Below are positions 49,161 to 64,000 of a DNA stretch of 64,000 bases, piece after piece. The stretch is taken from positions 62,001-126,000 of the forward strand of contig ML996704.1 in NCBI GenBank assembly GCA_010356995.1, written 5' to 3'. Both the position numbers and the translations under genes were made by a program. Each line of letters starts with the position of its first letter. Positions within the stretch are counted from its first letter, which is position 1. The stretch comes from Trichodelitschia bisporula. Its lineage: Eukaryota. The notes beneath the pieces are model-generated. The model was not told where the DNA came from and ran no database searches. It worked only from the letters and a program-made list of their open reading frames with translations.

Positions 49161-51414
49161 ATGCCTCACTTATTTGAGGACACAACTCCCACCACCTCAC
49201 GTCCTCCGCTGACATCTACCACCTCGACCCCAAACAACATTGCCACTCTCAAGAAACAAGCTCAGCACTCAGCCATAGCGAAGGCTGTCCTGATGCAGAA
49301 AAAGCCGCATTCGATTGATACGGTTCCCAAGGTTGAGACGCGTTTGCGCCACCAAGTGCGCGATGACGACGACGACGAAGATCCTCCTCCCGGTGGGAGC
49401 GTCGACGGTGCGGTCCAGCCGCCGGAGTTGAAGCCCAACACCCGTTCCGACTTGCGGCACCTGCCAAAGAGTCTTCCTCCTCGTCCGACTACCAAGGAGG
49501 GTGCTGCTATCGGCGCTGCGCTAAGTGACACTCCTGCGTCATCGAATCCAGGTAGTCCATCGATGTGAGTTCTTGTGCATGCCTGTCTTCAGATTCAGAC
49601 CTCTGATATCCAGCAGTCCTGCGATGAAGCCGCAGTCATACGCTTCGACTCCTCGTGTCCGCCCGACAACCCTTGACATTCCTGGTCTGACTCGTTCTCG
49701 TGTTTCGCCAGACGGCCGCATCTCTCAGCGTGACATTGGCTCTAAGCTGGTGATTGTGATGGTTGGCCTTCCTGCTCGTGGCAAGAGCTACATCACCAAG
49801 AAACTCGCCAGGTACATGAATTGGCTGCAGCACGACACGAAAATCTTCAACGTCGGCGAGAAGCGCCGGCTTGTCGCGCACGCTATGGACGGCGATCACA
49901 CACATCCTGTGCAGCTTGAGGGCGCTCAGCTGGCGGCTCAGATTCTCATGAGCGATGAGGCGGGTGGTCCCTCCACCCCGATCATCCCATCATTCAGTCT
50001 TAACGACGCTGCCTTGCCTGTCCCCGGCGAATCTCCGGCGACCTCGCCGAACGAAGTGACCGGCGGAAAGACAGAGGGCCATACTCCCGTTACGGAGCAG
50101 ACTGCAGAGTTCTTTGACCCTAACAACGCCGAAGCCGCGCGTATTCGGGAGCAGTGTGCGATCGATACCCTGGATGAGCTTCTGCAGTACATCCTCGTTG
50201 AGGGCGGATCCGTCGGTATCCTGGATGCCACAAACAGCACCCTGTCCCGCCGTAAGCTGGTGATGGAGCGCATTCGCGAGAAGGCGGGTGATCACCTGAA
50301 CGTTCTTTTCATCGAGAGCATCTGCGAGGATGAGACCTTGCTCGAGTCCAACATGCGGCTCAAGCTTTCTGGTCCCGACTACAAGGACAAGGACCCGGTT
50401 GCCTCTCTTACCGACTTCCGGAAGCGGGTCGCCATATACCAAAAGAACTACGTTCCGCTTGGCGACTATGAAGAGAAGAACAACATGCCCTATGTCAAGG
50501 TTATCGACGTTGGCCGCAAGGTCAACTGTCACCAAATCAAGGGGTTCCTCAGCTCCACTGCGGTGTCCTATCTGCTGAACTTCAATCTGGCCCCGCGTCA
50601 GATTTGGATCACGCGCCACGGTGAATCACTTGACAACGTAGCTGGCAAGATTGGTGGAGATTCGGCCCTCAGCGAGAAGGGTGTCGGGTACGCGGTACAC
50701 CTCGCGAAGTTTGTCGAGGCCCAACGCAAGGAATGGGACATTCGCCAGCGCGACCGTGCCGCTCATACTCACTTTCCCCCGCACCCTGGTGACCACACTC
50801 CGCCGAACCCTGTCTTCAGCGCAGGCCCCGAGGGCGAGATCCCTGACATGAACTTCTGTGTTTGGACCTCGATGCTCAAGCGCGGCGTTGACACCGCTCA
50901 GTTCTTCGACGAGGAGGAATTTGATATCAAGCAGATGCGCATGCTAGACGAGCTGAATGCTGGAATCATGGAGGGCATGACCTATGAGGAAATCAAGACC
51001 AAGTACGAGGCCGACTACAAGCTCCGTCGCCAGGACAAACTCGCGTACCGCTATCCGGGTCCCGGCGGTGAAGGTTATCTCGACGTCATCAACCGTCTTC
51101 GCCCGGTCATCGTCGAGCTTGAGCGCATGACCGACCACTGTCTGCTCATCACCCATCGCTCCGTGGCTCGCGTTCTGCTTGCCTACTTCATGGGTTTGCG
51201 TCGCGATGAAGTCGCCGATCTGGACTGTCCGCTTGGAATGTTGTACTCACTTGAACCGGTATGTATTCTTCATTTGACTGTCTAACTGCGCTAACAAATG
51301 CCGCAGAAGCCATACGGCGTCGAGTTTAAGGCCCACCGCTACAATGAGAAGACGGGCTGGTTCTACCATCTCCCCGACTTCCAGCTGCGTCCTTCGGCCG
51401 AAGGTCACCTTTAA
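49161..51414 (+). CDS. PFK26: 6-phosphofructo-2-kinase / fructose-2,6-bisphosphatase family protein
   Basis: VMVGLPARGKSY, ILDATNST, RHGES and LDELNAG motifs. Introns 49565-49613 (or 49616) and 51259-51306. Confidence 0.93.
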
Positions 51415-52320
51415 TGGTCGGTGCCATTCGGTGAATCTTCATGCGGGCGTTTTCGATTGCATGATCGGTGTTTGCGGGTTTTTACGGCTGGGATGGACAC
51501 GGGCACGGACTAGGGATGGACTTACGGGTCTTCGGTGATGTGGCGTCTACGGTTTGATGGTTACCTGGCGTGATGAGATAGATGGCGCTGGGAGGATACC
51601 CGGTGGGACTGGGATACCTGGTAGGATTGGGATTGGTGAAATGGATTTTTAGCATGGCGGATATGGGATATGCTTCACTTCTACTGCTGGTGATACTTTA
51701 CTTGTGCTCTCATGCTTCGCAAGAACCTTGTCCGGAGTTTTAGGCCGTGAACACCTTTCATGGCCGTGACCACCCCACATGACAGGTCCGCCGAGGAAAA
51801 CCACGACGCGCAACCACGATTACTCGTGCCCAAAGTACCTTCGGCTTGCGCCACGCAAGACTGGAACCCGCAGGCGCTAGTTTTGCCTCTTCGCTCCCAT
51901 GTTGCGCGTTTTGCCTCTTTCCCTCCAATCTACCGCCATCGTGCCCATCTTGCCAACCTCGTGGGGTTTGTGGGTGGCCAGGTTGACCCCACTCACCACC
52001 AGCCTGGTCCGGAAGAAGTCGGTCCACAGCTCAGAATTTAGATTTCGCCCTCCGGTAGAAATTCCATGTATAGAAAGGCCATACGGTACAACAACATCTA
52101 ACTTTGAAAAGCGTATCTTCCTGCTCCGTCCTGTCGGGTAGGTGAGAATGCGGCTGTGGCGTTTCATCGGAGGTCGGGCCGAAATTTGCGGGTGGTCCGG
52201 GCGAGCCGGCAAGCCCGCGGACCGCCAGGCTTGTCCGGACAACCTCAATCGATGCGAAGCATGATACGCGCAGCGCCTTACCGAGCCTGTTTCCTTTGCA
52301 AAACAGCACCATGTGATGCA

Positions 52321-53028
52321 TTCAGGTTTAAAAAAAAGCGCCAAGGGCGTTGTGATGCTGTCAGCCTGAAGGTGGGGCGTCGTCTCTAGCCCTGTACGAA
52401 TTGGGAAGGGTTGGCGGGCTTTGGGGGGGGTGCTGCGGCATCGTGAAGAACGCCATGCACACCGCTGAAAATGTACGCCAAGACTTCCCATTGCATCTCA
52501 CTGGGCTGGAAATACCATACAATTAATTCTGATTTCAAAAAGGCGCGTTGCGATGTTGTGCCCGCATCAGGCTGAAGATGGGGTGTCGTGCACGGCCCTG
52601 TCCGACTTGGGAAGGTTTTGCATGGTGTGGCGGCGGTGCAGCGGCATCGCGAGAAACGCAACCATGCAGCTCAAGATGCCGGCTTTACCTTTCCATGGCA
52701 AGTGTATCGGGTCATGATACTTTACGACAGCTTTCGGCTTTCAAAAATGCTGTTATCACGTTGTGGGTGCGTAAGGCTGAACATGGGATGTCGTGCATGG
52801 CCCTGTCCGAATCAGGAAGGGTTGGCGTGCTTTGGCGGTGGTGCAGCGACGTCGTTGAAAACGCCGCGCACACAAGTTGGGTACTATATTAGGCTCCTAG
52901 AACCCTGTTCCTAATTAGGAAAAGTAACGAATCATTTGAAGCTTCGAAAATCCTCGTTGAGACGTTGTGGTCGCATCAGGCTGAACATGGGATGTCGTCT
53001 CCGGCCTCGTCCGAGTTGGGAAGGAAGG
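52321..53028. repeat. Degenerate non-coding tandem array, 4 copies, ~205-bp period
   Basis: Anchor CTGAA(G/C)RTGGGRYGTCGT at 52366, 52572, 52777 and 52981 (spacings 206, 205, 204). Each unit has a ~135-bp similar core and a ~70-bp dissimilar spacer. The fourth copy is truncated. Confidence 0.92.
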
Positions 53029-54477
53029 CTGAATCACGTGAGCAGGGTTCGAACAACATGTCTTCGGAGGACAGGTCAGAGCACTAGCGCGTCTCATGCG
53101 ACTCGGGCGCAAAACTGTTGCGCCTTCATATCCTGCGCTACTTGTAGGGGCGTCAGGATGCTTGATTGCCTTGCATGTCCTATTTCGCATGGGATTTACA
53201 ATTTTTTTGAAATGTCGGCATTCAGAGCCGGTTGATTGACTGCGAGTTTAAAGCATTCCTTTGAGATTTATGTCTGTTTAATGCCAAAAAGTGACTTTAA
53301 GAAAGCGAGAATTTGAAAATGGAAAGGTTAGGCAGAAGGATGTGAGGATGGAGCACGAAAGCTCAGTCTGTGGGTGATGTTTTACGCCATTCACCAAACC
53401 GCCTACGAGGAAGACAGACCAAACTGCCGACGGAAAAAGCCCGTCGTGGAAACATGTCAATACTTTCAATATATACCGCATTGAAATGCTGATGGGGGAG
53501 CATCCTTATGGGAGCAGTCGCCATCTTCAACATCCACCTGCGACACTCGGGATGCATGGTTATACCGAGCCTTCGAAAATGCTTCTTGGGCAGCCCTTCT
53601 CAGAAAAGCCGTGCTTGCCGCTATATTTTTGCCACACTCATGGCCAAAGCTGTATAACCGGAACTTTCCACTGGACGTCGACGCGCCGCCGCTCGCGGCC
53701 CGTGCACCTACGATAACGGCACGAGCCAAGGCTGAATCTCTGCAACGCCATGGTGCCTATGCGTACCAGCATAACACGACGCGGTCTGTGCTCTGTGGGG
53801 TATAAATACTGATGGCGGTGGCATACGACAACCTCGCCACATCATTGCGCGACCAACAGTGGCGTCGGCAAGCAGAAGCCGACTGTGAATCACAATTTGT
53901 AATAAGTGGCAAAAGGGAACAGGCTGGAAGATTCCAGGGGACAATCACTTGGATATATAAACACAGTCTCTCTCGTTGCTAGAAAATCAATCAAGTCAAT
54001 CCTTTCTCACACAAGTCTTTTGGTACCTTCCAACTGTTGGAAGGGGCCAGAAGGATCAGATTGATGTTAGACGGATTCCCATTTGTTACAGCCTTCTGAT
54101 ATTGTAAGTTCCTGTATCACTTCGCGCTCGGTATCTTTGTTGCCGGTATCCGTTAGCGCTCGGGATTGCGTACTTCCGTTGTCTTGTTTCATCGTATCTT
54201 TGGCTCGACGCCACTCCTGTTCCATATTTCCTAAATAGTACGAGTTGCCCACCTGGTACACTCGACAGTTCAGTCTACGTCAATCAACAGAAACCTTTGT
54301 TTCATCTGTTCTCAGCTTCTCCAGTCCAACAATTGATAATCACGGAGTTCGAGTGTGTTCTAGTTCTTTCTGTTTGCGCAAGCATATTCGCCATTCTTTA
54401 TGTATATATATGTCAATAGATAGTTAGGTTGCAGGAAATTGACCAACTCATCGCAATACTCTAAGACCCTAAAGTTA

Positions 54478-54740
54478 CAACAGTTTCTAAGCCTGATATC
54501 CCGGCGGCCTCCTACGACCGCAACAACGCTCGCGAGGCCGAAGCTCAGGGCAGCACTGGTGGCTCCGATGAGTAGACCAACACCTTCACCAACTTCTCAG
54601 TGGCTCTGTACCCTCCATATGTAAGTCAAGAACCACTTGCAATGGACATGAGGCCAAGATCTCCAGTGACAGCAAGATTTGGCCAAGGGCTGTGGCCAGC
54701 AATAGATATGGCTGGGTAACCTTTGAGGAGCTGCAAGGGT
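54478..54740 (+). pseudogene. 3' remnant (copy 0) of the tandem small-protein family
   Basis: Translates PDIPAASYDR..AREAEAQ...DE* versus copy A PEIPAGFYER..AYEAKAR...KE*. It is followed by the same 3'UTR intron-like sequence (GTAAGTCAA...GGACATGAG...CAG) and 3' flank as copy A. Confidence 0.75.
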
Positions 54741-55123
54741 TAGGTGCTCGGATTGCATACTCACGTCATTTGCTCAGTGTTTTCGGGCTTAGATTGTTCA
54801 AGGCTCCGTCCCAGTTGTAGTTCTAGCTCGAATTCCAAAAACTTCAAAAATATGTTCGTGCTTTGATGTGACATTGATGCCATTAGAGACTGTAATATTC
54901 TTCTGGCGCTCTATGCAAAGAAAGCTGAATAATATCCTTGGTCATCTCGTCCGCCCTGAATTTAGCACACTGAAACAATTGGCGGCTCTAAAGAAGGTCA
55001 CAGTACCAGCGTCTTGCTCAAAACGGAGTCGTAATCAGGAAGAAAATATATACCGTAGCACAGTTGAAATGAAAACGACCCAGTCACACAGCAATGAGAA
55101 ATCAATTCGGCTTTTCGGTGCCG

Positions 55124-55167
55124 CAGGCCACAAGCAAGTTAGCGAACCTCGCTAAGAGCCGAGCAAC
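55124..55167. repeat. Near-identical ~44-bp element with hairpin (second copy 57144-57188)
   Basis: CAGGCCACAAGCAAGTT(A)AGCGAACCTCGCTAAGAGCCGAGCAA occurs twice, 2020 bp apart. It contains the stem-loop TTAGCGA-ACC-TCGCTAA. Confidence 0.92.
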
Positions 55168-55964
55168 ACCCCTGTCCGGTTTCGTCTGGCATCGCGGCAT
55201 AGGGGGAGCTGCCCGAACAGCCAACTTTTATAGCCTTGATAGAAGGTATGGTGGTCTCAGGACATGCTATAATGGGATCTAAATCCTAGAAATCCTGTAG
55301 CCCTGCTAGCGGCCAAAGCGATAACGCCGGCCGAGTCGCCTTCAGGCCATTATATCCTGGCTGTTTCAGAAACACCAGACTTCGGAGCGGCAAATCATCA
55401 GGCCGCCAAAAGTCTTATTATCTCATATCCCAATACTGTCAACTGAAAACCTGGGATGGCAGCCCCTCAATGGTCCAGAAGGTTATAGAAGAAGGCGGTA
55501 TGGCAGGCCCGTGCCAAGGTATCAACGGGCAAAGCAAGCACCGCGTACCTGCCATTTACGGCCTATCAACTGGCAGCGCAGGACTTGGAGCTTGAGCCAT
55601 CTATGACCTTAGCTCCATAATGCTGCCATAAAGGTCCAGGCCGCGAGCTTTCAAACCATTTCTTCTACAACCACTGCTCACAGCATACTGAGAGCTGCAT
55701 CCTACCACTCATCCTAGTAAGTACCTTTCCTTTGCAATCTCTCTCCCTCGTCAACGCAACAGTTGGAGCTCAAGTCATCTGTATCCTTGGCTTTTAAATT
55801 CCTTAAAGCTCCTGGCCACATATTTTTCAACCATTTCCTTTACAACAGCAGCTTACAGATTGTAGACCCTCACCACATACCACAACTTCTAACATATCGT
55901 CCAACCCAATTTCATCTTATCCTCAATACCCCAAAGCACTCTTCAGTCCATCTCTACTACCACA

Positions 55965-56643
55965 ATGAGTTCCACCTGGACTGATCTGGCCAAGGCCTTT
56001 GGGGCGACCGAGGAGGTCCGGAATCCTCCCGCCACCACGACCGACAAGGCTAAGAAGCCGCAGGCCACGGCCAACCCGAGTAAGTTGAGCCCTCATTGCA
56101 TTGGCGTGTCTTAAGCAAGCTGACCATACCTACAGGCCAGCCTGTCCGTAAGGATACTGGGGCTCGTCGCTCGACTGCCACTCCCAAGGGGAAGCACCGC
56201 CGTGCCTCCTCCAACCTCTTCGAGACTGCCCGCCCTGATCATCTCGACCGTCGTCGGACAATGCTCCAGAAGGCCAAAGCGATGGGCTCGAGCAAGGCCC
56301 AGGAGTTCGATGATGAGCAGTACTTTGATGCAGCGGATGAGTGTAAGATAACCTTGCTAAATTGGAAAATTTAGCTAACTATGGGTACAGACGAGTTCAT
56401 GCTCAATCCCAAGGGTATGAACAAGTCGCGCAGTAGGTTTATCCCAGGCTTGAATATGATCATGAACTAACATCTGCTCTAGTGAATAAGCGCAACTCCC
56501 AGGTCATGGCACACCAGCGTCGTCAGTCGGAGCAGGTTCAGCAGCCCGAGATCCCCGCTGGCTTCTACGAGCGTCAGTTCGACAACCGTGACTTCGCGTA
56601 CGAGGCCAAAGCCCGGGCGGCCGCCGTTCGTGACAAAGAATAG
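55965..56643 (+). CDS. Copy A: unknown small basic protein, 174 aa, 4 exons
   Basis: Exons 55965-56079, 56136-56342, 56391-56432 (42 nt) and 56483-56643 splice in frame through canonical phase-1 introns with branch sites. Putative 3'UTR intron 56687-56731 and 5'UTR donor at 55717. Confidence 0.8.
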
Positions 56644-58229
56644 GCATTCCTATGAAACTTCCCAGAGGGCCAGTTCCCATCCATAGGTAAGTCAATGGCC
56701 ATTTCAACGGACATGAGCTAATTTCCTTCAGCGCCAATTTACTTAGCCAGGGGCAGTGGCTAACAACGGATATGAATGGGGAATCTTTGGGAGTTTGTAG
56801 GGTTTGCTTTCTCATGACTACTGTACTTTGCGACTAGAATGGAATGCAAAAAATGTGCAATATGCCTGCTTCAATGTGACCTCGCTGCTATGGCAAGCTG
56901 TAACACTTGATTAGCACTTTTTATAAAGGATGTTAAATGACATACTCTGAAGCCTTGCCCGCACTGAGTCCGGCAGATGCAGACAGGTCGCGATTCTTAA
57001 GATGGCAGTGTATAGGCACATTTCTCAAAGGAAACCATAAGTAGAGTAAAAATTCTATTTAAACGCAGCTCAGTCAAGATGGAAGCACTCCAGTGGCACA
57101 AAAGAGAGGGTCACGAGGGGGTTCAGTCGGCTGGCTAGTGCCTCAGGCCACAAGCAAGTTAAGCGAACCTCGCTAAGAGCCGAGCAATACCCCAGCACGC
57201 CCGGTCCGATTTCATCCAGCATCACTGTATGGGGGGCAGCTGCCTGAACTGACAGTCTTTAGCCAGCTAGCAGCCCTGAAATTACAGGAGCTGAGGTTTG
57301 CCCGGGTGTGGCGCGCGTCTGATTAGCTCCGAGCTTTACTTCCTTGTTGAACGCGTGATCAACCGTCCGAATGCCCTGAGCTTGAGGAGATTTGAGTTTT
57401 GTTTTGACATCGACTGTGAGATGTACCCATCCAGATTGAAGACTGAACGCTTGCAAAAATGTAGTACAAACACCAGGTAACTCTATGTCTGTGTGATGCC
57501 GAAGTGACTTGACATCCATAAATAAGCACTGGATTTGACAGAGCAAAGCCTCATGCTCTACTACGAATTGTCCACGTGGGCCACAATCAAGGGATGTAGG
57601 GCTGCTTGTTACGTTTGGAGCACTGCCATATCGAATATTTGCGATGCTACAGCATTGTACGCAGCCAAACTCAACAAGATTCAAATACCATATTTGCTGT
57701 GTGTCAGTGTCCGCCAAGTGTGGCTGCATCCGTGGATATAAACTGTGATATTTGTAAACTCCTCGATGGAGGCATACCTATATTATGAGAAGCAGACCAC
57801 CCCTATTGATGCCGTTAAATGGCGACGCACTGGTTGAGAGCGACAGCGGATGCTTTACATTCGGTATTCCAGTTGGGAACGAAACATGGGATAAAAGACA
57901 TACAGTATACCAAATGTTCTCGGAATAACGCACTGCGATGCAAAAGACATAAAAAGCTCGAGCACCCAGCCTTAACTGCTTGGCACCCGCATGCTGATCA
58001 AAATGCTTAGCGTCAACTCTCTTCGAAACCTTTCCTCTACAGCCTCCACACTGTTCACATTCGACGAACATCGTCAGTCCTGCGCTCACTTTGTAAGTTT
58101 TTGTTCCCTCCCTCGTTCTCCCTCACATCGTTTTCTTCCATCCTTCCACGGTCACCTAATACCCAGCAATAAGTACTGATATTGTTGCAGACATTGCTGA
58201 ATTTGAACCAAAACACCTGTCCCCAAAGC

Positions 58230-58800
58230 ATCATCAAGGCTCCCAGCTGGAAGGAAAAGGTTCTCGAGATGAACAAGCATGGCCCAAAGCTTGGGAAGGA
58301 CACATCGGCCCCTGATGGCAACACCGATACTTCGGCTGGTGTCGGTAAGCTTTCACACTCCGAGAAGCTCTTATTCATGCTAATCACGCCGTTATAGCTA
58401 GCACCCGCACGGCTATATGCCCGGTCGCAAGTCATCCTACGCTTGCAAGGTCATCATGACTGGTCCACAGGGGGGTCAAACGAACGACAAAGCTGCTGAG
58501 GCTACCACCAACGGGACTGTTGGTACGGATAACGTTGACGGCAGTAAGACTTAACTCATCCCATTTGTATTTGGATACTGACATCGACAGACGAAAACGT
58601 CACCCCGAAGGCTGCCAAGCTCCGCCGCTGTAAGTGTTTAACCGGAATGTTGATAAGCCTGCGCTTACTCTCATATAATCTCAGAGGCGGGGGTCGCGGG
58701 CTCGGGTCGGAAGCGTCGTTGGACCCTTCTGGATGCGAAGGCGATGGCTTTCACCTCGCAAGATACGGGTGTCTGGGAGGATATACCGGGGGAGAAGTAA
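58230..58800 (+). pseudogene. Copy B: degenerate paralogue of copy C
   Basis: Introns 58345-58397, 58544-58590 and 58630-~58678 resemble the copy C introns. ATC stands where C has ATG, a frameshift gives TGA at 58457, and the last acceptor is TAA instead of TAG. The last exon reads KRRWTLLDAKA...WED versus KRRSTLLGKKA...WED in C. Confidence 0.8.
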
Positions 58801-59749
58801 GGTCTCCTTTCGGTTGCAACTCATGGCTGGGAGTCGGGCAAAGGAGAGGTGGGTAGAGCCATTTTCCTACAGTAGATAGCTAGGCGTCAGCCGCAAATGT
58901 CACATATTTAAGCAGTCAAGCAAGTTTTGAATGAACACGTGGAAGAGAACTTGAAGAGATAACTTACTCCAGGTTTCTGTGTTCAAAGTAAAACGTATAA
59001 AAGTATCGACATTATATATCTTGCGGCCATCTCAGCTCTAGCGAGATGTGCCCCTTGAACGCTTTCAGTTCACTGACTGAAAGCGGGCGATGCTATATCA
59101 GACAGAAGGTGGTAACGAACGTCCCCTGAAGTGCTCAGCACACAAGCACTATATACTCAAGATGAGAACGTACTTGAGACGAGAGCGGCCTCAGGGCGGA
59201 TTAAAGAAGGCCCCCGTTACAAGCTCAGTGGCAGGAATGAGCTCTTGGGTCCTCCAGAGCACAGGCCGGCAAACATAGAGAAGACCGAGCACTTTGATGC
59301 TTGGCGGCTGCCGGTCTGGCTATAAAAGCCAGCAGCAAGCTCTCTCCAAGTCTCCTCCATTACAGCCACACCCAACACTCTCTTGCTGTCCCATTACTGC
59401 TTTCTGAACAACCGTTCCCGAACAGTAATTGCTTTGCGTCTACCATGTAAGTCTCCGTCCCTCTCTCTCATAGACACTCGCCTTTCACTACTGTATTTCA
59501 TCCTCCTTATATCACCTCCACCTACTGCACCAAAATCGCGTCAGCATAACATTTCCACTTTACAACTCACGTGTACCTTTGTTTTCCTTCATCCGGAAGT
59601 CCATCTCAGACGTGCCTTTGTTTACCACATCACTTGCTTGGAAACTTCAGTACACAAGACGAAGCGAGGTTCAGGAGGCAAGTATATGTACTGGCATTGA
59701 TGCAGTCACTTCCAAGTTCCAAGAACTCCATCAACGTTCACAAGCCATC

Positions 59750-60337
59750 ATGCCTTTGGCCGACATCTTTCGCGAGGCGGCCGAGGACGCTTACAAGCTT
59801 GACAAGGAGGCTTTGGCCGCTAAGGAAAAGGCGGCCGCTTCGGAGCGGGCCAGTAAGTTTTCACTCCCCGAGCGCGTGTTCTTCATGCTAATTGCGCTTT
59901 ACAGTTCAGGAGGAACAGGTCAAGGCGTCCGGCCGCAAGCCGATCATGCAGCGGAAGGTCACTCGGCCCCGTGCCGTCACGATCCTCCGCAAGCAGACTC
60001 ACGTTGCTCTGCCCACCATGAAGCCCACTGCGAACGCTTCCGTCGAGGCTGAGGGCAAAGAGAGTAAATTCAATTCATCCCACTTGCAGTCGATGCTGAC
60101 ATGGACAGACAAAGAGGCCAAGGGTGGAATGGAGACTATGTTCCGTCGCTGTAAGTAGTTATCGACACTGCCGATGAGCCTGCGCTTACCTTTATAGTCT
60201 CCAAGATGCGAATGTCTTCTTCGGCTCAGAAGAACAAGCGCCGTTCCACGCTTCTGGGCAAGAAGGCGAAGTCCTCTAGCACCGACGGCACTGGTGCGGA
60301 GGACTCCGCTTGGGAGGATCTCCAGGAGGAAGACTAG
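59750..60337 (+). CDS. Copy C: unknown small basic protein, 147 aa, 4 exons
   Basis: TATAAAA at 59321 and a 5'UTR intron 59447-59705. Exons 59750-59852, 59905-60063, 60109-60150 (42 nt) and 60198-60337 splice in frame via phase-1 introns. Confidence 0.82.
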
Positions 60338-60644
60338 GGAGGGAATTGCTGGGCAGACGACAGTGAGCAGATGGTTGGCTCCCAGGATGCCTTTCCTCCG
60401 GACTTGACATGATTTCCTCTGTAGTTCTTCTAGCATAGCGACACGTTGACAGAAATTGCACACCTTGCACAAAAGATTGTTCGTGAGCTGTGGCACATCG
60501 TCAAGCAATGAATGTGACATACCCAAAAGACATGGAAGGCCAAGGTGGGGGCTTAATTTCGGAACTGCTTGAGTACTTGCGTCCTGTCATTTGAATCCAA
60601 AGAGCTTAAAGATATCCATACCTCTTGTCGACACCGACCACACC

Positions 60645-61285
60645 ATGACCCCCGCTGCCGCCCCATCAGTTAAGACCCCAACGAAGCTCCGCCGCCCTCC
60701 ACCGCGGGTGGAAAAGGCCGCCTTTCCCAGCTTCATCAAGCCGAACGAGAACCGCGCAAAGATGATGTTCAACAACGCGAACGCAAAAGACATGAGCCTC
60801 GCAGAGGCGAACGCCATCACCTTCGATGAGATCAATGCTGGTAAGCCCTGAGTGATTCGAGGGATGAGACGTTGGAGATCCCGAGGCCGGAGGGCCTAGT
60901 ACGGATCGTACGGCGATGGGCGGGTCGAGGTCATGGTTACCGTGGGTATGGTTGTTTATTGTTATTGTTATTGCGGAGTGGTGAGTGGTGAGTGGTGGTC
61001 ACGGAGGTCCGCATCAAGATCACAACGCTAGTGGCTGACACAGAGATACGTTCATGATGAAGTCTAGGCGGATGAAGAGCACCCACGGTAAGCGGATATC
61101 ACCGATTCATAGACATGAGCTGACCTTGTGCCAGAGAAAAAGCGCGACGGCAGCTCAAGGGGCACAATTACCGCACGCCTGAGCAGGCGGCGAAGCCGGG
61201 TACCCCATTGAGAACGCGCGGAATCGTGCCGACATACCTAAGTCGGGGATCGATAGCCGCTGTGTTCTGTATTGACTGCAAATGA
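60645..61285 (+). pseudogene. Copy D: frameshifted paralogue of copy A
   Basis: Exon 60645-60840, then a 42-nt microexon 61046-61087 (TFMMKSRRMKSTH versus A EFMLNPKGMNKSR; weak GAG acceptor). The last exon starts at 61135, and its A-like frame (QLKGHNYRTPEQAAKPGTP versus QVMAHQRRQSEQVQQPEIP) needs a 1-nt shift. Confidence 0.7.
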
Positions 61286-64000
61286 ACATCCAGAACGAAA
61301 GGTGGCAGCTGATCGGACTATGAGCAAGGTGTAAGGCGAATCTCCACTTCGGGCATCTTGGATTCATTCAGCATGATCAGCAAATGACGGAAGACGCTGA
61401 GGTTGAACTCTGCTTCAAGTGAGTGCGTTGAATTTTTTAAGATGCAACACTGGTCGGAACGATGCATTCCTTAGTGCACAGTTATTTGATGCCTTGGCCT
61501 GCGTTACGATGCTTTGGCGACCAAACTTAGATCGCCCAAGCACCACAACGCAAGCGCAGGCATCAAGAAACTACGCATTAAGGAATATATCCAACCCGTC
61601 CACGAGAAGCTTGCAGATACGCGGATCCCTCTATCCCGAGGAAGTCATCAGAATCCAGCGGAAAGAAATCGAGGCAACCGACGAGGCAACCGACGAGGCA
61701 AAAGCGGAGCTGTTCGCCCCGCAGCACCTCCCTCCATCAACTTCCGCGAACCTCAACGACATTAATCCAGAAGATATCCTACCTCGAATACCGGAGGTCT
61801 TCTTTGGGGTCGTCATTGACGAGGTTGTATCCGAGATGAAGTCGGGAAGCGGCACGAGCCGTTCGCTAGAGCGGAACGTACCCCTGTCTGCCGCGGCGAT
61901 TGGCAAACAGATGATACAGTTGCCTTCCAGGCTTCAGCTTTTGAACCGATGTCGTAAAAATCAGCTTGACGGCGGTTCGGTCTAACGTTACGCCTGTCAA
62001 TTCAGATTCATCCGCGGTGGAGGCTGTTCCCAGGGAGTTCCTCCATGGCAGGGAATGGAGGTTCCTCGTGAAAGCTGGCGCTTATCAGCAAACTGTGGCG
62101 CGCTCGGCATGAGAACGGGACGCGCAACTCATTGGCTTTGGCATTGCAATGATGGATGGGCTCTTCGATGCGACAGGAACGGATACAGCTAATTGGGAGA
62201 AGCAGCGGTATCCATGGAGAGTTTCGTGAGAAGACATCCAGTTCCCACAAGCGGCGCCTCGAGGCGGACCATACTTGCAAGGACGATTTGTCGAGGTTCA
62301 TGGTACGCTCACCGTCCCGGTCATGGACCCATAAATTTCTGAGCCATACGTTGAGCAACCCAGGAATATATCCGAAGATGAGAGGTAGTCTGGAGCCGCA
62401 TGCTCCAGCAGATGGCCATGATGTTCCAAGGGTTCGGACCAGGGCCGTCCAATCTGCGAAGCATGTCGGCGAGGTGAGCTAGACATGGAGGCAGACGTCT
62501 GGGCTTGTTGTCTCCATCGGCCATCACAGGCTAGACACATGTACCGTGGGTGAAGACATAGGGAGCCCGCCAGAGCGTCGTCGGATTCAGTGAGAGCATG
62601 TTGGGCGCGGCATGTCCATGGACATCCTCGGAATCAACACTCCGAAGAGCGATATCGACACTATTGTCTACTCTTAGCATACGAAATGGTGCATACGGAC
62701 GGGAAGGAAGTCCAGACGGATCAGTGATACCTAGCTCCACATCACCAATCAGCTCCCGCACACTAGCGACTTCGACGCCCCAAGCTTCCCATTGCATGGT
62801 CGCTTCGAGGTTCGTCGGCAGGCATGTGATGCATGGGCTCCACCACCTCTCCCGTCGCGCTGCAGAAGGCTGACATTGCTTTTGCAGCACAGTGGTAAGG
62901 CTTATCGCATCCCAGGATGTTGGCGACATGGTGCGGGAGCTCGTCATCCGGCACCACATCATCGCGAGCTACCCCTCTCGCGTTCGTCGTCGATCGCCCC
63001 GCACCGGGCGGGCGGACGGCTGAGCTGCTGCCATGTGGGAGGGACCGGTTCGGCTGTTGCGTCCTGCCTCGCGTTGGTGGACGGGCGATAGGGCCAAAGT
63101 TGGTCGGCGATGATCGAATGAGGCGCTGCGGGGAAGCTCAATGGTTGGCGCTTGCTATGCTTGCTGTCCCGGTTTTTATAAACAAGGCATCAGCCTTGTA
63201 GCAATGCTGGCAGGCTGACAGTCGTGGTGGGGGAGCAGACGGGGTATTTGAGGGGGTCGCCGGCCCACGGGCTCCAACGGTCACCAGAAGTGATCGTGCA
63301 GTTGTGCGGAGAAACTCCGAAAACCCTTGTCGATCGTAAGATCGTCTTTGCACCTCTTCACTCTGCATGATTGCATGCATGTCATCGTCTGAGAAATCTC
63401 CCCGCGAACGAACGACGTCAAAATAGGGCGTGGAAAAAAGAAACGGTCGTTCCCCACTGCCGCCTTCACGCCATCTATATCTGGGGGCGCCCCGGTATCA
63501 TCCGTTCACCGACCAGACCCTTGCCCATTCAACTAGCCTAGCTCCGCCGCATTGCTACCATTTCTTAACCCTCACAACCCCACACTCTCGATCGTGCCCG
63601 GGACCTGCAGCAAGATTCTCGAGGCCCAAGACACCAGCTGTTGAGCTGCACAGTGTGCGGCATAGCAAAATATTTGCCGCCGACCGTGGCTCCCCTCACT
63701 TCTTCCCTCGGTTTCGGGTACTCTCTGGCTTCACCTCGCCGAAACCACCGGCCTCCAGATCACCGTACCCTTGTCGGGTAGAAACGGAAGAGAACGAACG
63801 ATCGCCTGGCGCGACCACCTCCTCGACTACATCTATCTCACGCTCGCCCATGGATTTATGAGAGCCTAGATCGACAGCGACTCAGGCTCCTGGCATTTCA
63901 GACGGTACCTGGCTGCCGTCTGGCCGCGTCTTGTCTCACCCACAGCTTTTTCCACCCTCGACAAATCTACCACCTGATCTCTTCAACCGCCCACCATGAC

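Follow-up and report, generated by a model that had tools for sequence, protein, structure and literature searches.

The intact gene at the locus, C (59750..60337, plus strand), was modelled from the sequence as a four-exon open reading frame of 147 aa, with exons at 59750-59852, 59905-60063, 60109-60150 and 60198-60337 separated by three phase-1 introns of 52 nt (59853-59904), 45 nt (60064-60108) and 47 nt (60151-60197). The GC content at codon positions 1/2/3 is 0.59/0.46/0.76, against 0.63/0.38/0.71 for the PFK-2 gene that served as a control in the window (the whole 64-kb stretch of DNA analysed), and GC3 peaks in the predicted frame in 4/4 exons. By this periodicity C is a genuine plus-strand coding gene. 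Contigs came from X1, a DNA run, and from X3 and X4, which gave cDNA-like contigs and are RNA runs by a guess. No plus-strand splice joints of any of the six B and C introns were found among the X3/X4 contigs, which show the presence of a joint and not its absence.

Copy B (58269..58799, plus strand) is a degenerate paralogue of C with exon pieces at 58269-58344, 58398-58543, 58591-58629 and 58685-58799. Its introns of 53 nt (58345-58397), 47 nt (58544-58590) and 55 nt (58630-58684) are homologous to C introns 1, 2 and 3, respectively. Homology of B and C at the protein level was confirmed by an alignment score of 60 against 1.5 ± 10.5 for codon shuffles, with 0/500 reaching the observed value. 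The naive gene model of B meets a stop after 45 aa, and a TAG at 58399-58401 lies in the frame matching that of C. The acceptor homologous to TATAG of C is TATAA (58674-58678), and use of the next AG (58683-58684) makes a T|AG stop across the junction. Copy B is thus broken, without an intact frame, and its GC3 signal (0.60-0.83 per exon piece) is weaker than that of C. A low-depth contig (58033-58328) is unspliced through the putative 5'UTR intron of B, contigs here too showing presence and not absence.

Gene A (55965..56643, plus strand) encodes a 174-aa open reading frame with three phase-1 introns and a 42-nt third exon, an architecture like that of C. GT..AG joints for introns 56343-56390 and 56433-56482 and for a 3'UTR intron at 56685-56729 were present in X3. 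A tblastn search of the window with A returned nothing at B or C, and identities between the introns of A and those of B and C (0.30-0.60) amount to noise. Remnant Z (54514..55022, plus strand), recognised by blastn HSPs between Z and A, is the 3' end of an A-like copy comprising the CDS tail, the 3'UTR with its intron and downstream DNA; a high-copy repeat stands in place of the 5' part. Tandem Repeats Finder reported nothing within 52000-55000.

The proteins of A and C contain 0 cysteines and carry net charges of +9 and +7, respectively. Neither N-terminus has a hydrophobic stretch, the Kyte-Doolittle value in 10-residue windows peaking over the first 35 aa at 0.28 for A and 0.35 for C, and no signal peptide was found in either protein as judged from this hydropathy rather than from a dedicated predictor. 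Pfam returned 0 families at E ≤ 1 for seven exon translations of A, B and C, each queried as a single exon. C exon 4 (45 aa) and A exon 2 (68 aa) had no relatives among the longer proteins of a 5.8-billion protein library, and a phmmer search of 1.84 billion representatives with C exon 4 gave 0 matches at E ≤ 0.001. The searches with C failed to return even a self-match, whereas the PFK-2 of the window is present in the library at 100% identity, as a Trichodelitschia protein that marks the host as a Dothideomycete; the public protein set apparently lacks gene C. The nearest relative of that PFK-2 is only 81% identical. A pattern scan of metagenome contigs with the conserved intron-3 block gave 0 matches and one with the intron-1 block gave a single match (L001), which is missing the GTAAG donor, has unrelated surroundings and was read as chance.

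Conservation of introns, exons and flanks

The preliminary description of this DNA had claimed that the introns of B and C are more alike than the exons, and the alignments bear this out. Identity per column in global alignments is 0.76, 0.77 and 0.60 for introns 1, 2 and 3 (0.72 over 46 columns in a local alignment of intron 3), compared with 0.45, 0.45, 0.50 and 0.53 for exons 1 to 4. An ungapped 69-nt repeat of 71% identity (D1) lies at intron 3 of both copies. Shuffle controls (n = 300 each) gave z-scores of 8.6, 8.2 and 4.9 for the three introns, the observed score being reached by 0/300 in each case; the exons gave 1.4 (26/300), 1.5 (26/300), 3.9 (0/300) and 6.1 (0/300). Local comparison of segments produced z-scores of 10.2, 10.5 and 8.2 for introns 1, 2 and 3 and 6.5 for exon 4. 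Outside the CDS the values were 0.5 for the promoter, 0.8 and 1.1 for the 5'UTR exons, 2.8 for the 5'UTR intron and 2.0 and -0.5 for the 3' flank. The promoter, UTR exons, 3' flank and exons 1-2 are at noise level, and the flanks are saturated.

To control for shared splice signals, every B and C intron was set against 28 further intron-like sequences from the window, which makes 56 comparisons for each pair. Identity averaged 0.43-0.45 and peaked at 0.59-0.60, and the observed score was reached in 0/56 for all three pairs. Searches of the 64-kb window matched each B intron solely to its positional C partner (E values of 8e-6, 0.001 and 2e-4 for introns 1, 2 and 3), and the three introns are mutually unlike, with cross-pair identities of 0.43-0.57 and no common motif. 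After removal of the 5' splice site (6 nt), the branch 5-mer and the 3' splice site (3 nt), 74/108 of the remaining intron columns are identical (0.69). Within the introns the mismatches show no significant clustering (permutation p of 0.94, 0.38 and 0.19), and the local alignments of the introns contain 2 gap columns. The conserved stretches begin and end at plus-strand exon-intron borders three times, indicating that the constraint is tied to those introns.

Nucleotide-level local alignments, which retain only the best-aligning parts of the exons, gave 82/113 matching columns in the intron interior (0.73) versus 118/193 in exons (0.61), a difference with Fisher p = 0.047 for all exon columns and p = 0.008 for third codon positions. 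Exon identity therefore stayed below intron identity with the splice signals set aside (0.61 versus 0.69-0.73), whereas the preliminary description had named exon identity equal to or higher than that of the introns as what would refute its claim. Identity by codon position in these alignments was 45/67 (0.67), 40/63 (0.63) and 33/63 (0.52) for positions 1, 2 and 3. The Jukes-Cantor distance is 0.34 for the intron interior versus 0.76 for position 3; third codon positions have diverged more than twice as fast as the introns, in a contrast between one pair of paralogues without an outgroup. Identity per ungapped column of the global alignments was 0.70-0.80 for introns and 0.70-0.75 for exons. 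No polymorphism was seen between X3 and X4 (0 differences over 58390-61500).

The tendency recurs in a second pair, Z and A, whose 3'UTR introns (that of A verified by RNA) are more alike than the neighbouring segments. Identity per column of the global alignment was 0.72 for this intron, 0.49 for the last-exon CDS, 0.54-0.56 for the downstream DNA and 0.49-0.64 for the segments neighbouring the intron. Identity per ungapped column is alike across the classes (0.70-0.83), and the difference is mainly one of indels.

No RNA structure was found in the B and C introns on either strand (MFE z-scores of -0.5 to 1.2), Rfam gave 0 matches at E ≤ 1 within 52000-64000 and a tRNA search at the introns found none. 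An intron-hosted small RNA (a snoRNA or another Rfam family) was ruled out on the grounds that there was no Rfam match, tRNA or conserved fold. In the absence of RNA structure and of an Rfam family, nothing besides splicing is visibly encoded in the introns.

A spliced antisense transcript

A multi-intron, ORF-poor transcript, newly recognised here, runs on the minus strand (58378..61500) over part of B, over C and over the next small open reading frame, with contigs extending to the right of 61500. Its introns, with CT..AC joints, are located at 58867-58967, 59126-59173, 59525-59576 (X4 only), 60136-60189, 60464-60522, 60576-60621 and 61064-61124. The joints occur in contigs of X3/X4 and are missing from X1, whose contig covers 54426-61500 unbroken. 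The antisense contigs have word depths of about 330 and 316, and A has one of about 5, values that cannot rank expression. The longest ATG-initiated frame of the spliced transcript within 58378-61500 is 127 aa with a GC3 of 0.57 and hence without a coding signature, and minus-strand coding was accordingly rejected as the cause of conservation. The transcript had no match in Pfam or Rfam. Nine open reading frames within 60-64 kb matched no Pfam family, the one sub-threshold match, at 15.4 bits, falling short of the cut-off of 25.

The antisense intron at 60136-60189, with its joint 60135->60190 in both X3 and X4, mirrors and overlaps C intron 3. The donor of this antisense intron, GTAAGCGCAGGCTCATC, is a conserved plus-strand block read in reverse complement, so that the block GATGAGCCTGCGCTTAC, when reverse-complemented, gives a 5' splice site in use on the antisense strand; this is the best-conserved block, with B and C identical at 16/17 nt. 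The branch-like ACTTAC of the same antisense intron is the reverse complement of the plus-strand 5' splice site. The cause of the overlap is visible in the signals themselves, since the reverse complement of GTAAGY is the branch-like RCTTAC and that of the branch GCTGAC/GCTTAC is a donor starting with GT. The antisense intron at 61064-61124 mirrors a plus-strand intron-like sequence (61088-61134), bringing the mirrored introns to 2/7. In the antisense contigs, four sense introns (1 and 2 of C, 2 and 3 of B) are exonic and remain unspliced.

Selection on the protein

The protein-guided alignment of B and C comprises 83 aligned codons with 37% amino-acid identity and retains a C-terminal motif, K/R-R-R-x-T-L-L-x-x-K-A ... 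W-E-D. Values of pN and pS were 0.41 and 0.63, with dN/dS of about 0.44 over the 83 codons, those of exons 1-2 being unreliably aligned. Identity at position 3 was 0.41 against 0.33 ± 0.05 for codon shuffles (33/500 reached the observed value), which places third positions near saturation. RIP was dismissed as the cause of the divergence: the exons are still GC-rich (GC3 of 0.67-0.76), and the mismatches mix transitions and transversions as judged from the alignments, untabulated.

Discussion

The explanation we favour, with slightly less than even confidence, is that slow introns under splicing constraint, and not accelerated exons, account for the inversion between B and C. B and C would descend from an old tandem duplication, in a Dothideomycete fungus, of a lineage-restricted gene for a small, basic protein of about 150 aa that is of low complexity and lacks cysteine; C remains intact and coding on the plus strand, and B is decaying. 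The unconstrained parts (promoter, UTRs, 3' flank, third positions and most of exons 1-2 with their many indels) would have come to or near saturation, and the protein would be under weak purifying selection with the one C-terminal motif kept. The introns of 45-55 nt would be selected as splicing units, comprising the 5' splice site with its flank, the branch region and the 3' splice site, and the fixed spacing in such minimal introns would tolerate almost no indels. We infer that selection for plus-strand splicing is the source of the constraint.

Several observations count against this explanation. An identity of ~69% beyond the core signals is more than generic splicing constraint would readily give, and the unclustered mismatches also argue against it, since clustering is expected if discrete signals alone are selected. 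Copy B is broken, which makes selection for its correct splicing questionable unless the decay is recent. Gene A has the same architecture without intron similarity to B and C, and the Z/A classes differ mainly in indels. The comparison of introns with aligned exon columns reaches only p = 0.047 for one pair and no outgroup.

The preliminary description had attributed the inverted pattern to accelerated diversifying evolution of the exons of a toxin- or effector-like family, and had named functional constraint on the introns as the alternative; the pattern holds, the attribution is not supported, and the data favour the alternative. Diversifying (positive) selection on exons beside neutral introns would indeed leave the introns more alike and exons 1-2 at noise level, in an orphan gene of a small tandem cluster and with the pattern known from snake venom genes. 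We regard it as very improbable: third positions have diverged further than the first two codon positions, dN/dS is about 0.44, signal peptide and cysteines are wanting, and B is frame-broken. The exons are not accelerated relative to a conserved background, since divergence has gone as far in the promoter, 5'UTR exons and 3' flank, unlike in the venom cases, and only the introns stand out. The uncertain alignment of exons 1-2 leaves space for local episodes only. There is also a slim chance that ~50-nt segments of a single pair yield the contrast through sampling noise and alignment effects, given that indel-rich disordered coding sequence aligns badly and length-locked introns align well, that the test against aligned exon columns gives only p = 0.047, that ungapped identity is globally similar (0.70-0.80 and 0.70-0.75) and that Z and A differ mainly in gaps. 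Against this stand the z-scores of 8-10 for 3/3 introns, when 6/7 flanking non-intron noncoding or exon segments have z ≤ 2.8, and the p of 0.008 against position 3; moreover, even unrelated sequences reach inflated ungapped identity when aligned globally.

A specific function of the introns beyond generic splicing, either regulated splicing or retention or use of the same DNA on both strands, is unlikely in our estimate. The even identity across the intron interior fits constraint on the whole segment, the B introns are kept despite the broken frame, 2/7 antisense introns are mirrored, and the one overlapping C intron 3 has its 5' splice site opposite the best-conserved block. An above-chance overlap of antisense with sense introns is reported for Plasmodium falciparum (PMC3089446). 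Four of the sense introns, namely C introns 1-2 and B introns 2-3, are however unspliced within antisense exons, the plus-strand exons are equally antisense-exonic and unconserved, the three introns share neither a conserved structure nor a motif, and nothing links the protein to RNA binding. In its strongest form, which is decidedly improbable, the three introns would be dual-strand splicing elements serving as plus-strand introns and as donor and branch signals of a long antisense ncRNA, frozen by selection on both as drift changed the remaining locus. GTAAGY / RCTTAC and GCTGAC / GTCAGC are near-palindromic, and on such a reading an interplay of sense and antisense splicing would control an orphan gene pair. 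Interlocus gene conversion at rates varying along the tandem copies, with the introns homogenised for longer and the exons escaping by selection or chance, is improbable as well. The copies lie 1.5 kb apart, the evenly spread intron mismatches are as expected from a younger coalescence, and mosaic divergence of tandem paralogues through variable conversion rates has been modelled for Arabidopsis halleri (bioRxiv 10.1101/2025.10.29.685298). Conversion would require three separate tracts of ~50 nt ending at exon-intron borders. Exon 3 (39-42 nt), which separates introns 2 and 3, shows little conservation (0.50), and the introns are only 70-77% identical, so that no conversion can be recent.

Comparison with known systems

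Higher conservation of introns than of exons is often taken as a flag for an arms race, and the locus illustrates how an ordinary cause can raise it: a weakly constrained, indel-tolerant orphan protein beside minimal introns unable to drift freely. In venom toxin genes (snake PLA2, three-finger toxins and conotoxins) the exons of the mature protein change faster than introns and UTRs. B and C resemble them as paralogues of a tandem cluster with introns aligning better than exons, and differ in that third positions are the fastest class with dN/dS of about 0.44, the UTRs and flanks are unconserved, the proteins have no signal peptide or cysteine scaffold and one copy is broken. Identities by codon position together with those of the flanks are a simple check that separates the arms-race reading from intron constraint.

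Short spliceosomal introns are subject to purifying selection on splice signals, on spacing and on the avoidance of spurious signals. The introns of B and C, at 45-55 nt with canonical GTAAG, CTRAY and YAG and almost no indels, agree with this and are the slowest-evolving class at the locus; they differ in that the whole interior is conserved (0.69 outside the core), beyond the splice signals alone. Should intron constraint of this strength, with third positions changing more than twice as fast, extend across the genomes of fungi with ~50-nt introns, short introns would be a poor neutral reference in them.

Introner-like elements are near-identical intron copies in unrelated genes, longer than regular introns and with a stable predicted structure. 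Those of Dothideomycetes share with the present introns the fungal class and the occurrence of mutually resembling intron sequences. The B introns, in contrast, match their positional C partner alone in 64 kb, the three are mutually unlike, all are short (45-55 nt) without a stable fold (MFE z of -0.5 to 1.2), and no near-identical intron copies occur in other genes of the 64-kb window.

In RNA-seq of Plasmodium falciparum, antisense introns overlap sense introns, for a reason that the available part of the report leaves open (PMC3089446). The spliced antisense transcript described here likewise overlaps sense introns, for 2/7 of its own, and differs in coming from a single fungal locus and in having a visible cause. 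The mirrored antisense intron offers a sequence-level reason for the overlap of antisense and sense introns that is left unexplained in that part of the Plasmodium study.

Conservation of introns and exons in the paralogues B and C

The tandem paralogues B and C, both on the + strand, were aligned by segment, and identity per column and z relative to 300 shuffles were determined for each exon and intron. CDS introns 1 to 3 were 0.76, 0.77 and 0.60 identical (z 8.6, 8.2 and 4.9), whereas exons 1 to 4 were 0.45, 0.45, 0.50 and 0.53 identical (z 1.4, 1.5, 3.9 and 6.1). Common splice signals were ruled out as the cause of the likeness by comparison with a further 28 intron-like sequences from the window, which gave mean identities of 0.43–0.45 and a maximum of ≤0.60; for each pair the observed score was matched in 0 of 56 control comparisons. 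The C partner was the sole significant match of every B intron within 64 kb, and 74 of 108 columns were identical after removal of the 5' splice site, branch 5-mer and 3' splice site. The inversion noted in the preliminary description, with introns better conserved than exons, is therefore real and statistically supported.

Rates were compared separately in two ways. In nucleotide-level local alignments, which favour exons because just the best exon parts align, identity was 0.73 in the intron interior (82/113) and 0.67, 0.63 and 0.52 at codon positions 1, 2 and 3 (45/67, 40/63 and 33/63); the intron interior differed from position 3 (p = 0.008) and from all exon columns (p = 0.047). The protein-guided alignment gave pN 0.41, pS 0.63 and dN/dS ∼0.44, with position 3 identity (0.41) barely higher than the codon-shuffle null of 0.33, reached by 33 of 500 shuffles. 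Segment-wise local alignment of B and C was at noise level for the promoter (z 0.5), the 5'UTR exons (0.8 and 1.1) and the 3' flank (2.0 and -0.5), with z 2.8 for the 5'UTR intron, 10.2, 10.5 and 8.2 for the CDS introns and 6.5 for exon 4. The noise-level flanks and UTRs, near-null position 3 and dN/dS together indicate a saturated neutral background with weak purifying selection on the protein. The introns are thus a slow class and no neutral yardstick. Accelerated diversifying evolution of the exons, the headline interpretation of the preliminary description, is not supported: the most diverged class is position 3, and a saturated background, weak purifying selection and slow introns lead us to reject diversifying selection as the cause. 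Its alternative of constraint on the introns is supported, these being the slowest class relative to exons, promoter, UTRs and flank.

Gene models and proteins

C (59750-60337, +) is an intact ORF of four exons encoding 147 aa; its three introns, all in phase 1, measure 52, 45 and 47 nt. GC at codon positions 1/2/3 was 0.59/0.46/0.76, compared with 0.63/0.38/0.71 for the PFK-2/FBPase-2 gene used as coding control, showing that C carries this genome's coding signature. The predicted frame had the highest position-3 GC in 4 of 4 exons, which needs the frame shifts supplied by introns 1 and 3. Reading by eye suggests that intron 2 (60064-60108, +; 45 nt, 47 nt in B) contains no in-frame stop; if so, retention would insert 15 residues and leave the ORF unbroken.

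B (58269-58799, +) is a broken homologue of C. Homology at the protein level scored 60, compared with 1.5±10.5 for codon shuffles (0 of 500 reaching it). In the frame matching C, exon 2 of B begins with TAG (58399-58401), with a one-base shift relative to exon 1. The intron 3 acceptor is TATAA (TATAG in C), and the next AG yields a T|AG stop. B is likely a decaying copy.

The neighbouring 174-aa ORF A (55965-56643) has the architecture of C, with three phase-1 introns and a third exon of 42 nt; no significant sequence similarity of A to B or C was found. Contigs of the run X3 contained GT..AG joints for two CDS introns of A and for one 3'UTR intron (56685-56729, +) that starts 41 nt past the stop codon and has a conserved counterpart (54620-54664) in Z, a truncated A-like copy. 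The basic A and C proteins (net charge +9 and +7) have 0 cysteines and no hydrophobic N-terminus; single-exon queries of Pfam and two very large protein libraries revealed no relatives. A small + strand ORF adjoining C downstream (60645-60839, MTPAAAPSVKTPTKLRRPPP...; first exon 65 aa, GC3 0.75), with an intron-like sequence at 61088-61134 (+) and no Pfam match, may be a further member of this cluster of small basic proteins.

Genomic setting

Gene structure at the right end of the window is fungal, with short introns (GTAAGT...CTRAY...YAG) and GC of 0.47–0.64. An NCBI protein labelled Trichodelitschia matches the PFK-2/FBPase-2 exon (50002-51258) at 100% identity, and the runner-up match is 81%; Trichodelitschia belongs to the Phaeotrichales, an order of Dothideomycetes. 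Downstream of this gene, intergenic positions 52325-53024 hold four diverged direct repeats (units 82–138 nt, spacing 204–206 nt, identity 64–80%) absent from Tandem Repeats Finder output. The 5' part of Z is replaced by a high-copy repeat (53810-54480) with many variant positions, a summed contig word depth of ∼20,000–49,000 in the DNA run X1 versus ∼447 in single-copy flanks, and occurrences also in the RNA-like runs. An intergenic element is conserved upstream of A (55107-55230) and B (57127-57261), with 75.6% identity over 135 nt and a near-identical ∼46-nt core (CAGGCCACAAGCAAGTT(A)AGCGAACCTCGCTAAGAGCCGAGCAA) containing AGCGA..TCGCT as a short hairpin; DNA around it is just ∼55% alike, and no Rfam or tRNA match to the element was found.

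Minus-strand transcript

The runs X3 and X4 were guessed to be RNA, and their sample differs from that of the DNA runs. From 58.8 to 61.1 kb, their contigs (5.1–5.8 kb long) contained seven CT..AC joints, the introns of a minus-strand transcript extending over 58378-61500 and continuing right of 61500; the X1 DNA contig was unbroken across these joints. The transcript ends near 58378-58390, within intron 1 of B, and spans part of B, the whole of C and the small + strand ORF downstream of C. Intron 59525-59576 was spliced in X4 and retained in X3. The transcript looks non-coding over the 2.7 kb of spliced sequence examined, with no ATG-ORF >127 aa and no GC3 signal.

Two of the seven antisense introns mirror a + strand intron or intron-like sequence. 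Antisense intron 60136-60189 overlaps intron 3 of C (60151-60197); the conserved block GATGAGCCTGCGCTTAC, reverse-complemented, gives the antisense donor used, GTAAGCGCAGGCTCATC, and in the same way the + strand donor GTAAGT gives the antisense branch-like ACTTAC. Antisense intron 61064-61124 likewise mirrors the intron-like sequence of the downstream ORF. Introns 1 and 2 of C are exonic in the antisense contigs.

Probable constraint on the introns

In the nucleotide-level local alignments, conservation starts and stops, for all three introns, at the exon-intron borders of the + strand, which ties the constraint to those introns. The B and C CDS introns are minimal (45–55 nt) and nearly indel-free; neither strand gave a stable or conserved fold, and no Rfam match was obtained. 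The simplest reading is that purifying selection would act on these short introns as splicing units. The 3'UTR intron of A and Z, RNA-verified in A, points the same way, with an identity of 0.72 versus 0.49–0.64 in adjoining segments, the classes in this pair differing chiefly in gaps. However, against a purely generic splicing constraint, intron mismatches are unclustered (p 0.94, 0.38 and 0.19), 69% identity beyond the core signals is high, the B introns are preserved despite the broken state of B, and the A introns share nothing with those of B or C. Homogenization of the introns by interlocus gene conversion seems unlikely, since it would need confinement to three 50-nt tracts bordered by splice sites. 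Because a single pair was compared, with no outgroup, the mechanism of intron constraint is one that we infer; the cause is likely ordinary, with constrained minimal introns beside a weakly constrained orphan protein of which one copy is decaying.

There is a modest chance that the introns have a locus-specific function tied to sense/antisense splicing, and use of both strands may add to the intron constraint. The near-palindromic relation of the fungal donor and branch consensus offers a mechanism for overlap of sense and antisense introns. In Plasmodium falciparum such overlap is reported to exceed chance, with no mechanism given (PMC3089446); the likeness to the present locus is the overlap with sense introns, found here for two of seven.
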